From: a virus
IMG/VR virus record: IMGVR_UViG_3300045988_005587
Span: 1-5,971 of that record
DNA length: 5,971 nt
Strand: one strand, 5' to 3'
The notes under the pieces are model-generated. The model made no database searches, had not been told where the DNA came from, and saw nothing but the letters and a program-made list of their open reading frames with translations. Below are positions 1-5,971 of the stretch, piece by piece. The translations under genes and the position numbers were made by a program. Numbering within the stretch: the first letter of the stretch is position 1; each line of letters begins with the position of its first letter.

Positions 1-77
1 CCAATAAACAGGAAGACTACTTCATGATAATGGGAGGTAGTCTGATTGTAGACGGAGGAACCATAACAACTAATAAT
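1..77. repeat. Terminal redundancy copy 1, identical to 5895..5971. This is a linearisation overlap of a circular genome.
   Basis: Base-by-base comparison: ccaataaacaggaagactacttcatgataatgggaggtagtctgattgtagacggaggaaccataacaactaataat occurs at both window ends. Confidence 0.95.
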
Positions 78-1876: not shown

Positions 1877-1936
1877 CAGCCGTATATATCGAGTTATATA
1901 TAATCGCTTTTGGAAAAAGCGCGAAAACAAAACAAT

Positions 1937-3022
1937 ATGGGATTCTTAGATTTTTTAGGAAACGGAGGGTCTGGCCTAATTACAGGACTTGCCAACACAA
2001 TAACAGGAGCCGTACAGAACAAGAAAGCACTGGCATGGCAGAAAGAGCAATGGCAGCAATCAATGGATTACGGTCGGGAGATGTGGGAGAAACAGAACGA
2101 GGCAGAAAATGAACGTATGGCACTGCAGAACCAGTGGAACAAGGATGCAGCAGCGCAGTCACAGCAGTATGCTAAAGAGATGTTTGACTATACGGGTTAC
2201 GAGAACCAGGTAAAACAGATGAAGGCCGCAGGACTGAATCCAGCACTGATGAACGGTGGCGGAGGTTCAGCAGGACAGGCAAGTGCAGGAGCTGAAGTAC
2301 AGCCTGCTCAGGCATTCCAGCCAATGGGCATTCAGATGGCATTACAGGCACAGCAGGTAATGGCCAACACTCAACTAGCTAATGCTCAAGCTCAAAAAAC
2401 AAGAGCTGAAGCCACGGCACAGAACATGCAGAACCTGATAGGCAGCAGCATAGACTTAGCTCAAAAGATTGGCGAGATAGGGAAAACAAAGCAGGAAAAG
2501 AAAAACCTGAAGGCTACATATGACAAGACAGTGAAAGAAGTCGAGATGGTTCAGGAAGAGGTTAATAACCTTATGCTACAGGGAGATATACTGAAAGAAA
2601 ACAAAGAGCTGCTTGAATTCCAGAACGGAGTGAACAGGATTATCAAGAATGGAGTATACTTCGATAGCAAGGGCAAAGAGGTAAATTGGCAGGAGGCGGT
2701 ACTCATAAGGTATTTCGGACCTCTCGGCAAGGAAATGTCACAGTGGGAGAAAGACGAAAAACAGGCATTGTTCGACAAAGGTGTCCTGGAGCGTCTGATG
2801 AATGACATAGATGCCATTGCAACAGGTAAGGTTAACGAGTACTCACTGTCAGGAATGAAATTTGACTTAATGCAGAAACAGTGGGAAAGAGAAGACTTCG
2901 AGCTGGAACAGGACAAAGCAGCATCCAATCTGCTTGAGGAGCTGACAGGCGAAGGAGAATATGCGAGATTGTTAGGCAAATTCTTGAAATTACTGTTAAG
3001 ATTCAACAAAGGCCGCAAGTAA
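1937..3022 (+). CDS. VP2: Microviridae minor capsid / DNA pilot protein (VP2, H-like), 361 aa.
   Basis: It has a Gly-rich hydrophobic N-terminus (MGFLDFLGNGGSGLITGLANTITGAV). The motif QVKQMKAAGLNPALM matches the AGLNP signature I recall from microvirus VP2 proteins. A Q/A-rich segment is followed by a K/E-rich, heptad-like C-terminal half. I prefer the ATG at 1937 over 1910 because of the shared AACAATATGGGA start context. Confidence 0.8.
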   Translation: MGFLDFLGNGGSGLITGLANTITGAVQNKKALAWQKEQWQQSMDYGREMWEKQNEAENERMALQNQWNKDAAAQSQQYAKEMFDYTGYENQVKQMKAAGLNPALMNGGGGSAGQASAGAEVQPAQAFQPMGIQMALQAQQVMANTQLANAQAQKTRAEATAQNMQNLIGSSIDLAQKIGEIGKTKQEKKNLKATYDKTVKEVEMVQEEVNNLMLQGDILKENKELLEFQNGVNRIIKNGVYFDSKGKEVNWQEAVLIRYFGPLGKEMSQWEKDEKQALFDKGVLERLMNDIDAIATGKVNEYSLSGMKFDLMQKQWEREDFELEQDKAASNLLEELTGEGEYARLLGKFLKLLLRFNKGRK

Positions 3023-3321
3023 GTCGCGCGCGTACGTATATCGCACACGCACGGAATCAACTTGACGATCATATTTTGGGCGTCTCCCTACGGGCCGGGC
3101 TTTCCGGCTCAGACAAATGCCCTACGGGCATACTCGCCTGCAATCCCTGACGCACTATGCAGAATTCGCTACTATGTGGCGCGCAATCGCCGCGCGGCTA
3201 GCATACATAACAACAAGAGGTCGGACCACCTGAAGATGATAGCATCATCGGAAGAAGTTTACGACCTCTTATTGTTATGTATGAATATTATATTAAAGTA
3301 AAACTTAAACAAATTATAATT
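3023..3321 (+). other. GC-rich, hairpin-dense noncoding region between VP2 and Rep. It is a candidate replication-origin or regulatory region.
   Basis: Hand count for 3023-3200 gives 104/178 G+C (58%) in an otherwise AT-rich genome. Hairpins: 3092-3110 (gggccgg/gcttt/ccggctc with one G-T pair), 3117-3131 (atgccc/tac/gggcat) and 3202-3283. The 10-mer CCCTACGGGC occurs twice (3086-3095, 3120-3129). CAACTTGA lies at 3058-3065. Confidence 0.7.
3202..3283. repeat. Long imperfect inverted repeat: 22-bp arms with one mismatch and a nested 6-bp hairpin.
   Basis: Arm 3202-3223 (catacataacaacaagaggtcg) pairs with 3262-3283 (cgacctcttattgttatgtatg). The only mismatch is C3214/A3271. The nested hairpin is gatgat 3235-3240 / agc / atcatc 3244-3249. 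Confidence 0.9.
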
Positions 3322-4263
3322 ATGTGCCTGTATACTAAGTATTTATTGAACAAAAAGTATTTACCGACAAAGAAAAATGAACATAATCCGCCAGTATGCC
3401 ACGATGAAAGGCTAAGATATGTACCGATAAAGTGCGGAAAGTGCATGGAATGCCGAAAACAGAAAAAAAGAGAATGGTATGTACGACTGTCTGAAGAGCT
3501 AAAAAGACACAAGGGAGCATTATTCCTGACTCTGACATTCAATGAAGATATGTATGAAGAGACGCGCAAAGCCGTGAATGCAGGAATCCATCCGACCTAT
3601 GAAGAGGAGAATGATATGTGCCGTTATGCAATAAGACACTGGTTGGAACTAATACGGAAGAGAACAGGAAAATCCGTCAAGCACTGGGTAATTACCGAAA
3701 AAGGTGAAGATTATAACCGCATACACATGCACGGTATAGTATGGTGCAGAAAGGAGGATGTAGACGCATGGCGTTACGGATATACCTACATAGGGGACTA
3801 TGTCAACGGCGAGACAATCAACTACATTACCAAGTATATGCTGAAAATCAACGAAAATTGTCCTGAATTCGAGGGGAAAGTATTCTGTAGCCAAGGCATA
3901 GGAAGAGGTTACGAAAAAAGCACAAATGCAAGACGAAACAGATATCAGGAAGAACGTACTATCGAGACATACAAGACAGCGGACGGACGAGAGCTGCCAA
4001 TGCCAAAGTACTACCACGACAAGATATACTCAGAAGAAGAGCGCGAAAAGTTATGGATTATCAAGCAGGAAAGGGGCTACAGATACATAGGAGGTGAAAA
4101 GTGCAGTACAGAAGACCTCGAAGAATGGGACAACCTGACAAGATACTATCAAAGACGGGGTGTAGAAGTGTTTGGAGACAGACCCGACGAATGGGAGAAA
4201 GAAAAGCAGCGCAAACGTCTGGAGCGTATGAAAATCGCCAGGCGTCGGATGCACGGAGGTTAA
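3322..4263 (+). CDS. VP4: Microviridae replication initiator protein (VP4/gpA-like HUH rolling-circle endonuclease), 313 aa.
   Basis: RCR motif 1 is FLTLTF (3523-3540). Motif 2 (HUH) is HMHGIVW (3724-3744). Motif 3, with two tyrosines, is YITKY (3823-3837). An N-terminal Cys cluster reads CH-x13-CGKCMEC. I prefer the ATG at 3322 (MCLYTKY...) because the upstream ATG at 3277 sits inside the right arm of the 22-bp stem. Confidence 0.9.
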   Translation: MCLYTKYLLNKKYLPTKKNEHNPPVCHDERLRYVPIKCGKCMECRKQKKREWYVRLSEELKRHKGALFLTLTFNEDMYEETRKAVNAGIHPTYEEENDMCRYAIRHWLELIRKRTGKSVKHWVITEKGEDYNRIHMHGIVWCRKEDVDAWRYGYTYIGDYVNGETINYITKYMLKINENCPEFEGKVFCSQGIGRGYEKSTNARRNRYQEERTIETYKTADGRELPMPKYYHDKIYSEEEREKLWIIKQERGYRYIGGEKCSTEDLEEWDNLTRYYQRRGVEVFGDRPDEWEKEKQRKRLERMKIARRRMHGG

Positions 4264-4321
4264 TAACCTGTTGATAACCTATCAAAATCGGTTAATAAAC
4301 CTGTTAATAAGTTGTTGATAA
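4258..4321 (+). repeat. Five phased copies of GTT(A/G)ATAA, organised as two roughly 20-nt direct repeats plus one extra copy. The array begins at the Rep stop codon.
   Basis: The octamers lie at 4259-4266, 4270-4277, 4291-4298, 4303-4310 and 4314-4321, with spacings of 11, 21, 12 and 11 nt. The larger units are GGTTAATAACCTGTTGATAA (4258-4277) and GGTTAATAAACCTGTTAATAA (4290-4310). Confidence 0.85.
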
Positions 4322-4369
4322 AAAGATGACTTAAAATTTGGAATATTGAAATATTTTAATAGGAAGGAA

Positions 4370-4466
4370 AGTTATGAACAATGCAAATAAATAAATGAAA
4401 AGTTATGAACAAAGTTATGAACAGGATAAATGATTGAAAATAAATGAATTAACATAGTTATGAACA
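4370..4466 (+). repeat. Iteron-like array: four exact copies of AGTTATGAACA interleaved with three copies of ATAAATGA.
   Basis: The 11-mer lies at 4370-4380, 4401-4411, 4413-4423 and 4456-4466. The octamer lies at 4391-4398, 4426-4433 and 4440-4447. Degenerate relatives are TATGAACA at 4590-4597 and TTATGGAACA at 4611-4620, the latter spanning the ATG at 4613. Confidence 0.85.
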
Positions 4467-4549
4467 GTTTCAACAGGCTATCATATACATATAGATTTAT
4501 TTTAATAGAAAAAAATATTATTAGATTATAATAGAATTTTGTTCAAAAT

Positions 4550-4580
4550 TTTGTGTTTTCAAAAACAATGCCTACATTTG
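4550..4580 (+). promoter_or_regulatory. Candidate Bacteroidota-type promoter: -33 TTTG, 19-nt spacer, -7 TAnnTTTG.
   Basis: TTTG lies at 4550-4553 and TACATTTG at 4573-4580, 33 nt upstream of the ATG at 4613. It is the only TAnnTTTG match I found in noncoding DNA and the only one with a correctly spaced upstream TTTG. Confidence 0.5.
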
Positions 4581-4612
4581 TAATGTAAATATGAACAATT
4601 AAAATAACAATT

Positions 4613-4825
4613 ATGGAACAGAATTACAGAATTACAATTTTTACTGCCGAAGGAGTCATAGAAGGAAATTTCTACAAAAAAGAAATAGCCATTAGTACGA
4701 TTGTAGAATTTAAAAAACGTTATGATGATTTCATAATAGGAATAGTATCAGAAAAAATCTACGGAAAATGGAACACTATATGTAGCATATCAAATGGAAG
4801 AAATAAAATTATTCATAATATTTGA
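4613..4825 (+). CDS. Hypothetical protein, 70 aa, first ORF of the small-ORF cassette.
   Basis: It is the first ATG after the candidate promoter. Its start context, AACAATTATGGA, resembles the AACAATATGGGA seen at two other genes. The composition looks protein-like, but I recognise no family. Confidence 0.55.
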   Translation: MEQNYRITIFTAEGVIEGNFYKKEIAISTIVEFKKRYDDFIIGIVSEKIYGKWNTICSISNGRNKIIHNI

Positions 4826-4967
4826 AACCGAATTCGTTAACGAAAAAACTGGACAGGTAGTAAACCTAACTACCACCTGCGGCAGTTATAAAGAGTTAGG
4901 AAAGTATTTAACAGACATGGAAAGAAAATCATGGAGAATGTTACAAGTAAAAAGGAAAGAAAACTGA
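4794..4967 (+). CDS. Hypothetical protein, 57 aa, absent from the supplied ORF track.
   Basis: Hand translation gives MEEIKLFIIFETEFVNEKTGQVVNLTTTCGSYKELGKYLTDMERKSWRMLQVKRKEN followed by a stop. It bridges the gap between 4825 and 4931, overlapping both neighbours (by 32 and 37 nt) in the compact style of this genome. The start context is A-rich, ATGGAA. Confidence 0.4.
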   Translation: MEEIKLFIIFETEFVNEKTGQVVNLTTTCGSYKELGKYLTDMERKSWRMLQVKRKEN

Positions 4968-5149
4968 TTAAGCTACTAGTAGTAGCATGGGTATTAGCAG
5001 CAACACTAGGAGGATGCGTGGTAAGTCTCAACATTCAGAAGAATAATCAAAACAGCACACAATCCGTATCGCAGGAGAATGAGGCGACTCAAAAAAATGA
5101 CAGTACCAACTTTAATATGAATACGAAAAATGGAAAAGAACAACAATGA
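4931..5149 (+). CDS. Small predicted lipoprotein, 72-aa precursor. It has a signal peptide with an LGGC lipobox and a 43-residue N/Q/S/T-rich polar mature tail after the lipidated Cys.
   Basis: The basic n-region is SKKERKLIK, the hydrophobic h-region is LLVVAWVLAATL, and the lipobox L-G-G-C places Cys29 at 5015-5017. The mature region contains no further hydrophobic segment. Confidence 0.6.
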   Translation: MENVTSKKERKLIKLLVVAWVLAATLGGCVVSLNIQKNNQNSTQSVSQENEATQKNDSTNFNMNTKNGKEQQ

Positions 5150-5381
5150 TTTTATCGAGGTTTACAAAGGAATCACAAGAATTGTAAAGACTAAGGAACA
5201 TGATGAAGATGTATGGTTTGCCGTAATTGGCAAAACAATTGTTTCACGTGGGACATTCAAAACAAAAAAAGAATGTATAAATGACCTGGAAAAGACTGAT
5301 TATGAACAGATTTGTAAGATTGCTCTTGCTGTTGTTACAGCTCTTAAGGATTATAAACCGGAAAAAGTAAAAGAAGTATGA
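5130..5381 (+). CDS. Hypothetical protein, 83 aa, probably translationally coupled to VP1.
   Basis: Its stop codon overlaps the VP1 start as ATGA (5378-5381). The start context is A-rich, ATGGAA. I recognise no family. Confidence 0.6.
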   Translation: MEKNNNDFIEVYKGITRIVKTKEHDEDVWFAVIGKTIVSRGTFKTKKECINDLEKTDYEQICKIALAVVTALKDYKPEKVKEV

Positions 5382-5971
5382 AAATAAACATAGGAAAGAA
5401 CACACTGGGTGACAACAATAAAATGTCCGTATCTCTAAGAGAGTATGGACGCAGTACACATGACCTGTCTTATGCGTGGAGGTCACCTATGGGAGTAGGC
5501 ACACTGGTACCGTTCATGAAGATACTAGCGTTACCAGGAGATACCTTCGATATCGACTTGGATACAAAAGTACTAACACATCCAACAGTTGGGCCTCTAT
5601 TTGGACAGTTCAAAATGCAACTGGACGTATTCACATGTCCATTGAGATTATACCAAGCTCAACTACATAACAATGCACTGAATATCGGGCTGGACATGAA
5701 AAAAGTGAAACTGCCTAAGTTTGCACATAGCTACAAATCAATAGAGGGTGAAAGCAGGGAAGGTACAAGAAGGTCAGGAGTAGGAAGTCTAGCAGAATAT
5801 CTTGGATTAAGATATGAACCCTTCAGGGACAAGGTTACCAATGCCAATGCAGTACCTTACTTTGCGTATTACGATGTATTCAAAAATTTCTACGCCAATA
5901 AACAGGAAGACTACTTCATGATAATGGGAGGTAGTCTGATTGTAGACGGAGGAACCATAACAACTAATAAT
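5378..5971 (+). CDS. VP1: Microviridae major capsid protein (VP1), N-terminal portion. The frame runs off the window end and continues at base 78 by way of the 77-nt overlap.
   Basis: Hand translation shows no stop codon: MKINIGKNTLGDNNKMSVSLREYGRSTHDLSYAWRSPMGVGTLVPFMKILALPGDTFDIDLDTKVLTHPTVGPLFGQFKMQLDVFTCPLRLYQAQLHNN... The blocks STHDLS, LPGDTF and LDVF-CP-RLY match the conserved N-terminal blocks I recall for Alpavirinae/Gokushovirinae capsids. The ORF is missing from the track only because it has no stop inside the window. Confidence 0.9.
   Translation, partial: MKINIGKNTLGDNNKMSVSLREYGRSTHDLSYAWRSPMGVGTLVPFMKILALPGDTFDIDLDTKVLTHPTVGPLFGQFKMQLDVFTCPLRLYQAQLHNNALNIGLDMKKVKLPKFAHSYKSIEGESREGTRRSGVGSLAEYLGLRYEPFRDKVTNANAVPYFAYYDVFKNFYANKQEDYFMIMGGSLIVDGGTITTNN
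5895..5971. repeat. Terminal redundancy copy 2, identical to 1..77.
   Basis: Same 77-nt string as at the window start. Confidence 0.95.

Follow-up and report, generated by a model that had tools for sequence, protein, structure and literature searches.

Clusters of DnaA boxes are well known on plasmids and on some double-stranded DNA phages. In P1 oriR, RK2 oriV, pSC101 and F oriS, host DnaA boxes lie next to an AT-rich region and recruit helicase loading. A different use of such a cluster is found at datA, a single-copy chromosomal locus outside oriC that requires IHF and acts on the availability of DnaA. Masai and Arai are said to have found that, in the A site of R6K, a DnaA box in a hairpin of single-stranded DNA nucleates the priming of the complementary strand. 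Boxes that depart from the canonical sequence have been described as well: in the injection-stop region of phage T5, eight DnaA or variant boxes, among them TTATCAACA and TTATTAACA, are grouped as pairs with 3 bp in between (bioRxiv 10.1101/866236), and in Mycoplasma hominis the DnaA box of oriC is TTATTAACA (PMC2751442).

The DNA analysed here, referred to as the window, is a stretch of 5,971 nt that comprises the complete genome of a circular member of the Microviridae, with the initial 77 nt repeated at the end, so that the circle measures 5894 nt. The genome encodes an F-like capsid protein (5378, across the junction, to 1493), a conserved ORF of 132 aa (1439-1837), a pilot protein (1910-3022), the HUH rolling-circle initiator Rep (3277-4263, plus strand; PHROG 942, E = 3e-27; Pfam PF23343) and a cassette of small ORFs (4613-5381). 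The sole large non-coding stretch of the genome, 349 nt with a GC content of 21%, lies between rep and this cassette (4264-4612). It contains the only full match to a Bacteroides-type promoter in the genome, TTTG-N19-TACATTTG (TAnnTTTG), which is found at 4550-4580 on the plus strand, 33 nt 5' of the ATG at 4613, and is conserved in relatives. Scans for sigma-70 promoters and for terminators gave nothing exceeding chance, and no Rfam family was found in the window or in seven relatives.

Based on the gene content, the Parabacteroides phages among the capsid relatives, the human-gut metagenomes from which the close relatives originate and the type of promoter, the genome is that of an Alpavirinae-like gut microvirus, and its host probably belongs to the Bacteroidales. 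[quoted passage not shown] Few have been cultured, and we know of no replication origin or host-factor requirement that has been established for them.

Anatomy of the repeat region

The preliminary description of the window drew attention to four exact copies of an 11-mer in a low-GC non-coding block. The 11-mer, AGTTATGAACA, was indeed located at 4370-4380, 4401-4411, 4413-4423 and 4456-4466, always on the plus strand and with spacings of 31, 12 and 43, and the GC content of 4370-4466 is 0.22. This is one part of the repeat family only. An inverted half, which had escaped the earlier description, occupies 4258-4321 and lies directly 3' of the rep stop codon. Here, the core 9-mer of the repeat, TTATGAACA, recurs in reversed form as TGTTRATAA in five to six copies with a phasing of 10-12 bp. 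On the plus strand, the inverted copies read TGTTGATAA (4269 and 4313), TGTTAATAA (4302) and GGTTAATAA (4258 and 4290), and the corresponding minus-strand readings are TTATCAACA, TTATTAACA and TTATTAACC.

A single site type, TTATNAACA, is found throughout the region, one mismatch away from the DnaA-box consensus TTATNCACA. In the seven exact TTATNAACA sites, the difference from this consensus is the replacement of C by A at position 6. Sites with at most one mismatch to TTATNAACA are concentrated here, with nine in 223 nt against 11 in the remaining 5504 nt. The repeats are probably relaxed DnaA boxes with the consensus TTATNAACA, a well-supported assignment to which we give a probability of roughly 0.75. 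The four 11-mers are best explained as belonging to a DnaA-box cluster that has two halves, in one of which they provide the strong sites.

The first half, array A, is on the minus strand at 4258-4321, with site starts at 4258, 4269, (4279), 4290, 4302 and 4313. Its first site, A1 (TTATTAACC, one mismatch to TTATNAACA; 4258-4266), is overlapped by the stop codon of rep and may instead be the remnant of a rep-terminal hairpin. Site A2 (TTATCAACA; 4269-4277) is conserved at 97-100% in its eight constrained positions. A decayed site at 4279-4287 is in register with the array, and relatives with about 50% Rep identity carry the canonical TGTGCAAAA at this place. It is followed by A3 (again TTATTAACC with one mismatch; 4290-4298), A4 (TTATTAACA; 4302-4310) and A5 (TTATCAACA; 4313-4321), the last of which has the canonical box TGTGAATAA (= TTATTCACA) as its homologue in the relatives L304, L305, L308 and L311.

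The second half, array B, is on the plus strand at 4372-4475 and consists of four exact sites and two to three weak ones. The two arrays diverge across a 50-nt AT-rich spacer (4322-4371, 22% GC), in which a near-invariant AAAATTTGGAA is present at 4333-4343; ATTTGGAT also adjoins the arrays of the more distant microviruses L021 and L215. Sites B1 (4372-4380) and B4 (4458-4466) are the TTATGAACA cores of the first and the fourth 11-mer. B2 and B3 form the tandem TTATGAACA-AAG-TTATGAACA with a gap of 3 bp (4403-4423), an arrangement shared with bacterial origin regions. A weak site with two mismatches, GAATTAACA (4446-4454, plus strand), is found 3 bp upstream of B4, and its ATTAAC is conserved. 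Immediately after B4 there is a conserved GTTTCAACAGG (4467-4477, plus strand), a degenerate site that is complementary to 4263-4274. Array B is followed by a stretch of 12% GC (4478-4549), possibly an easily melted region, and then by the promoter.

Other repeats of the block are less constant. Three ATAAATGA motifs, reported to be interleaved with the 11-mers, are present at 4391, 4426 and 4440, between the B sites (4391-4447, plus strand), and an extra copy occurs at 5277. The first and the third copy vary among close relatives, so the motif is only partly conserved. Degenerate copies of the repeat had also been noted toward the promoter. Both exist in the window, namely AAATATGAACA at 4587-4597 and TTATGGAACA, which has one extra base and overlaps the ATG at 4613, at 4611-4620, but the first of them is not conserved in relatives.

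The recurrence of AGTTATGAACA is not explained by composition-matched shuffles, in agreement with the earlier view that it is very unlikely by chance. At up to two mismatches, the window holds 12 copies of the 11-mer where 2.78 would be expected, and none of 200 shuffles of the whole window attained 12. For a second null, the 349-nt non-coding region (21% GC) was shuffled on its own 5000 times with its dinucleotides preserved. Here, any 11-mer was seen at least four times in 28 of the 5000 shuffles (0.6%), mostly as a low-complexity run. Seven exact TTATNAACA sites were not obtained in any of the 5000, the maximum being three.

Conservation among microviruses and occurrence in bacterial origin regions

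It had been considered that the repeats might be absent from relatives. They are not: both arrays were found at the same positions in about 50 relatives from IMG/VR and metagenomes. In 29 distinct relatives, positions 1-4 and 6-9 of the sites are 97.4% conserved, compared with 80.5% for position 5 and 84% for non-site columns. Position 5 varies like the spacer, which means that the sites are free exactly where the DnaA consensus has an N. Read on the plus strand, both arrays have a purine at position 5, matching the purine excess of this strand, as should be expected for a neutral position.

The layout of the arrays was surveyed by an IMG/VR scan with a Rep profile, in which 80 sampled relatives were binned by Rep identity. 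The layout '----++++' directly after rep was present in 18 of 20 relatives with a Rep identity of at least 57%, in 9 of 32 at 46-54% and in none of 28 at 40-45%. Altogether, 27 of the 80 sampled relatives contain the arrays, always immediately 3' of rep. Where Rep is merely 57-64% identical, the non-coding DNA is still 82-90% identical, and the change from one level to the other is abrupt and falls at the rep stop codon. At homologous positions in the arrays, the lineages of about 50% Rep identity show the canonical boxes TGTGAATAA (= TTATTCACA) and TGTGCAAAA (= TTTTGCACA). Both arrays are also present in GenBank MG945288, the Rep of which is 48% identical. Three sites, GGTTGATAA-G-TGTTCATAA-GTC-TGTTGATAA, are located in the non-coding region of L215, a microvirus with a Rep that is 23% identical. 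No site cluster was found in phiX174, G4 or phiMH2K, with phiX174 and G4 having one isolated site each. Since clusters are missing from these three phages and from many related microviruses, the element is not universally required.

The same sites are found in bacteria. A tandem-pair pattern with 20 specified bases, GTTATNAACAAAGTTATNAACA, was used to scan 596 Gb of genome sequence, and at least 120 genome contigs matched, against one to a few tens expected by chance. The matches listed come from Bacteroidota, Bacillota, Spirochaetota, Pelagibacterales, Rickettsiales, Bdellovibrionales, Parachlamydiales and others, and they are almost always intergenic. Within 300 bp of the listed matches, the canonical box TTATCCACA is enriched 10-fold over distant flanks, compared with 0.5-2.3-fold for control motifs; a canonical box within this distance is absent from 92 of the 120 matches listed. 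DnaA is encoded in 15 of the 120 8-kb blocks around the listed matches, while about 0.3 would be expected for a single-copy gene, and in 14 of these 15 blocks the pair is located within about 610 nt of the dnaA match.

Several individual loci illustrate this. In the complete chromosome of Sporomusa aerivorans, the gap between dnaA and dnaN is filled by six such sites, and the order is six sites, a spacer, CTACTACTATTAC (DnaA-trios) and AT-rich DNA, an architecture of box, spacer, DnaA-trios and AT-rich DNA that has been described previously (PMC8287927). Upstream of dnaA in Clostridium disporicum, eight canonical boxes are accompanied by six variant ones, and the array includes 'tgttaataactttgttgataacctgttaataac', which is nearly array A of the phage. 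A Muribaculum contig has both box types mixed, beside rpmH-rnpA. As an observation in its own right, pairs of TTATNAACA sites are a marker of origin regions across many phyla, even where canonical boxes are few or lacking at the origin.

Comparison with described systems and a possible role in replication

The arrays are equivalent to chromosomal DnaA-box clusters. As in oriC, several 9-mers of the TTATNCACA family are present, tandem pairs are separated by 3 bp, and the phasing of 10-12 bp and the adjacent AT-rich DNA are shared as well (PMC8287927). The GTTATnnACAG flanks of the sites match those of the E. coli boxes R1 and R4, which diverge as arrays A and B do; the oriC sequence used for this comparison matched 5425 of 5426 E. 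coli genomes. Unlike chromosomal origins, the phage element is carried by a 5.9-kb rolling-circle single-stranded DNA phage with no dnaA nearby, its strong sites all have A at position 6, and no run of DnaA-trios is recognisable in it.

The resemblance to P1, RK2, pSC101 and F lies in the combination of an extrachromosomal replicon that has its own initiator with sites of the host DnaA-box type. However, these replicons use theta replication and a Rep that binds iterons, whereas the phage has an HUH nickase and packages single-stranded DNA. Rep iterons separate from the boxes were not identified in the phage region. The T5 region is likewise non-coding, with pairs 3 bp apart and inverted sets of boxes (bioRxiv 10.1101/866236). 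T5 differs from the microvirus in being a large double-stranded DNA phage, and the role proposed for its boxes is the arrest of DNA injection, not replication. With datA, the arrays have in common that they form a probable DnaA-box cluster outside oriC, which would act on the availability of DnaA, but no IHF-type site was recognised in the phage.

Within the Microviridae, the arrays may be compared by analogy with the PriA (n') site of phiX174 and the primase site of G4, as a non-coding cis element that would recruit host priming. The origin types of phiX174 and G4 differ between related phages, which is paralleled by the presence or absence of the arrays among relatives. In contrast to the arrays, the phiX174 and G4 origins are structure-specific single-stranded DNA signals for PriA or DnaG, without DnaA boxes or sequence similarity. 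In a full-text search of a collection of papers, no report was found of DnaA boxes in Microviridae, nor of DnaA in the synthesis of the microvirus complementary strand.

The first DNA synthesis of the phage depends wholly on host machinery. Together with the opposed orientation and the phasing of the arrays, the very AT-rich DNA next to them and their location in the only sizeable non-coding region, this dependence points to a role in replication. From these features, we infer that host DnaA would bind the arrays cooperatively and build an oriC-like nucleoprotein complex on the only large non-coding region. The complex would then bring the host machinery for helicase and primase loading to the phage DNA, where it could serve the synthesis of the complementary strand and of the replicative form. 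For the DnaA-box identity and the replication role taken together, we consider the chances to be evenly balanced. Among the ideas put forward in the preliminary description, a double-strand replication enhancer comes closest to this view, with host DnaA as the most likely ligand.

The complex could act on the duplex replicative form, like the DnaA boxes in the origins of P1, RK2 and pSC101. Another possibility is the viral strand in its folded form, in which pairing between the inverted arrays would rebuild duplex boxes like the A site of R6K. With regard to a likeness to the R6K A site and the DnaA-dependent ABC primosome, the centroid fold of the viral strand pairs 4300-4323 with 4403-4426, that is, A4-A5 with B3-B2. 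Unlike the R6K site, the predicted hairpin is weak (-9.5 kcal/mol) and has a mismatch at the centre (position 5) of each box, and compensatory changes or covariation in the A:B pairing were not seen among the relatives aligned. The fold of 4250-4500 is no more stable than shuffles, with z = -1.18 for the viral and -0.21 for the complementary strand, and the pairing of A with B is an automatic outcome of inverted boxes. Strongly folded substitute origins in the array-less relatives L025 and L026 were considered as well. This idea was rejected, since their GC-rich non-coding modules are not significantly folded (z = -0.9 and -1.1).

Every strong site in the window has A and not C at position 6, and all of them fall outside the stringent E. 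coli consensus TT(A/T)TNCACA of Schaper and Messer, as cited in 10.1101/866236. The affinity of a single site is therefore probably low, which suggests that binding would be cooperative. The unwinding module (BUS) of chromosomal origins was taken to require three or more DnaA-trios (3'-NAN-5', consensus GAT) no further than 16 bp from a box, with AT-rich DNA beyond them. The Sporomusa origin served as the positive control for the trio module and shows CTACTACTATTAC. After the B sites of the phage, no run of three or more DnaA-trios was found; the maximum was two consecutive trios, none matching the consensus. Beyond A3 and A4, there are three triplets, again outside the consensus, in the direction of the 3' end of rep and not of the AT-rich stretch. 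As there is no trio run, this module, which defines chromosomal origins, cannot be made out in the phage.

If the arrays recruit DnaA, a cis-acting replication region would be defined for the whole clade, and the phage would appear to borrow the host initiator DnaA to copy its own DNA. A further implication would be that one genomic position takes up different host-recruitment modules in related microviruses, in the manner of phiX174 and G4, and the arrays would provide a compact DnaA-binding cassette of practical use in Bacteroidales genetics.

Competing explanations

The first alternative accepts the sites as DnaA boxes and assigns them to regulation. The arrays could be a multicopy sink that titrates or inactivates host DnaA and so blocks rounds of host replication, or DnaA could work on the promoter at 4550-4580, either as a transcription factor or by sensing the growth state. 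All the evidence for the identity of the boxes applies equally to this explanation, and the missing DnaA-trios and the location of the arrays, 84-320 nt upstream of the only promoter, are in line with it. Nine sites per genome, multiplied by the copies of the replicative form, would presumably amount to a large sink. However, opposed and helically phased arrays that are flanked by very AT-rich DNA resemble an origin, not a sink, and they are rather distant from the promoter for direct control. Furthermore, interchangeable origin modules account no less well for their patchy distribution. We judge titration or regulation to be unlikely as the role of the sites, and it is nevertheless a live rival to the replication role.

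Secondly, the repeats could be iterons of the phage Rep, forming a double-strand origin or a rolling-circle enhancer, in which case the resemblance to DnaA boxes would be coincidental. The arrays start right at the stop codon of rep and are always found together with this gene, the TTGATA in TGTTGATAA resembles the nick-site core CTTG^ATA of phiX174 and pC194, and AAAATTTGGAA is conserved between the arrays. The last of these (4333-4343) is a candidate for the Rep nick site, only that. A search for a phiX-like nick site common to distant relatives yielded shared k-mers that were all of low complexity or coding. Rep-specific iterons should vary with their protein, yet the motif stays constant while Rep drops from 95% to 57% identity, and it recurs at 48% (L021) and 23% (L215). 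Position 5 toggles freely between G and A, so that no single TTGATA is invariant, and canonical DnaA boxes substitute at homologous positions. The same motif, with the same pair spacing, fills bacterial origin regions. Rep-specific iterons were rejected because of the lack of co-variation with the Rep lineage and the presence of the motif in bacteria, and we regard the iteron explanation as distinctly improbable.

A more far-reaching version of the DnaA-box reading was also considered. Two opposed DnaA assemblies and the 12%-GC melt zone could constitute a miniature origin that depends on DnaA and is independent of Rep, by which the replicative form would replicate in theta style and the phage would persist in Bacteroidales as a plasmid-like episome (carrier state). 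If this were true, an integrase-free microvirus would gain long-term residence in the gut without lysogeny. We hold this to be very doubtful.

The preliminary description favoured an operator for the transcription unit downstream. According to this explanation, a small protein of the phage or another host transcription factor binds the array and controls the transcription unit of the small ORFs and the capsid gene. It is true that the direct repeats lie upstream of the only promoter and that degenerate copies are found near the promoter in the window, but the promoter-proximal one (4587-4597) is not kept in relatives. No small ORF is common to the array-bearing lineages (the window's clade, L021 and L215) and yet absent elsewhere, and the small ORFs have no match to a DNA-binding domain. 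The occurrence of the 9-mer in the chromosomal origin regions of many phyla points to a universal host protein. This occurrence, and that in microviruses with Rep identities of 48% and 23%, speaks against an operator bound by a small phage protein, and no small ORF co-occurs with the arrays. An operator of either kind is very improbable as the explanation of the arrays.

The same description raised, more speculatively, a Xer/dif-like attachment site, which would allow integrase-free lysogeny as in the Bacteroidales microvirus proviruses. TTATG is the inner part of XerD arms, and the inverted arrays loosely recall the two inverted sites of the CTX phage. In addition, the ends of the proviruses BMV1-6 have been reported to carry dif-like sequences (PMC3091885). 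A dif site was taken to be a 28-bp imperfect palindrome of the form 11-6-11 with the inner arms ATAA-N6-TTAT, and three consensus sequences were searched. The window contains no ATAA-N6-TTAT core, the best 28-mers match the dif consensus sequences at 16-21 of 28 positions and are all outside the block, and the repeats are direct with spacings of 12-43 nt instead of 11-6-11. For this block, the attachment site is hardly credible. The proposal made in PMC3091885 for other Bacteroidales proviruses is not contradicted; it simply fails to explain this block.

The genomic context of the relatives bears on the same question. The approximately 50 close relatives are of the size of a unit genome (about 6 kb) or less, or head-to-tail repeats, and no microvirus proteins were found in the 120 motif-bearing genome contigs listed, all of which are non-viral and none of which holds a provirus. 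Prophage junctions had been suggested for this block, and no provirus junction was found in it among these relatives and motif-bearing contigs. The metagenome scan returned contigs of up to 6.4 kb and a single one of 12.6 kb, L288, which contains the only phage-bacterium junction found. This junction is located elsewhere, in the small-ORF module about 270 nt upstream of the capsid gene. It is marked by a microhomology of 11 nt that falls within a truncated transporter gene, and L288 is probably a chimera or the product of an illegitimate event.

Genome form and transcription

The 77 nt at the start of the window (1-77) are repeated exactly and in direct orientation at its end (5895-5971). The window is, therefore, a circular genome of 5894 nt that was opened within the capsid gene, which starts at 5378 and runs across the junction to end at 1493. 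The listed ORF at 5476-5670 is an out-of-frame overlap inside this gene. Only one full match to a Bacteroides-type promoter (TTTG-N19-TACATTTG) was found in the whole genome, at 4550-4580; the first small ORF begins 33 nt further downstream. This single match implies one predicted main transcription unit, in which the small ORFs would be followed by the capsid gene, the pilot gene and rep.

The non-coding region downstream of rep

When the window was compared with related phages (L010, L011, L013, L015, L016, L018 and L019), the similarity changed abruptly at the rep stop codon (4259), with the non-coding region sharing 82-90% nucleotide identity versus a Rep protein identity of 57-64%. This step suggests that the non-coding region either has been exchanged as a module or is constrained far more strongly than rep. 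In the lineages with a Rep identity of about 50%, a GC-rich module, conserved and about 250 nt long, stands between the putative DnaA-box arrays and the promoter; it lies about 350-600 nt after rep in L304, L306, L308, L311, L312 and L314, and was also found in L025 (4700-4760). The module, which contains a CCCCTAAAGGGG hairpin and GGAAGCTCGCACTCTGTGCG..., is missing from the window, and a comparison with Rfam matched it to no family.

The spacer that separates the two arrays holds a near-invariant motif, AAAATTTGGAA (4333-4343). The form ATTTGGAT also adjoins the arrays in MG945288 (L021:5295; Rep 48% identical) and in the distant microvirus L215 (Rep 23% identical). The motif at 4333-4343 is a candidate Rep nick site, for which the phiX174 nick site (CAACTTG^ATATT) serves as the comparison.

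In the relatives L304-L314, the end of rep is a hairpin that resembles a terminator (GGCGGTTAATAACCGCTTTTTTT). At 4255-4268, the window carries a palindrome, AGGTTAATAACCT, that lacks a T-run. Taken together, these features indicate that site A1 (4258-4266, minus strand), the first site of array A, may be a remnant of such a hairpin rather than a DnaA box.

A phage-bacterium junction

In one 12.6-kb metagenome contig (L288, OGXA01002617.1), a related phage whose Rep is 63% identical is fused to bacterial genes (EPSP synthase, HAD hydrolase, GHL10, PadR and a truncated Na:solute symporter). The two parts meet near 6009, at a point in the small-ORF module that is about 270 nt upstream of the capsid gene, and they share a microhomology of 11 nt there, AATCAAGAAAT. 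The end of the contig lies within the putative DnaA-box region. Either the assembly is chimeric or the phage DNA integrated illegitimately.

Putative variant box pairs in other genomes

In a Treponema MAG (L045, 56-110), 14 nt separate the tandem pair of variant DnaA boxes from a perfect parS site, TGTTTCACGTGAAACA, which is a further marker of origin-proximal DNA. Spiroplasma phage 4 (SpV4, L293) has a tandem pair, TTATAAACA-NNN-TTATCAACA, within its capsid gene (2953-2973), which could be a chance occurrence in an AT-rich genome or a putative coding-embedded DnaA site. Three contigs of Symbiothrix / Bacteroidia MS499 (L036, L066 and L146), two of them from one genome, share a unit in which a Bacteroides-type -7 box (TAcCTTTG) is followed by GTTATGAACAAAGTTATCAACAGGTTATCC and then by a poly-C run; this unit may be a repeated mobile or plasmid origin element.
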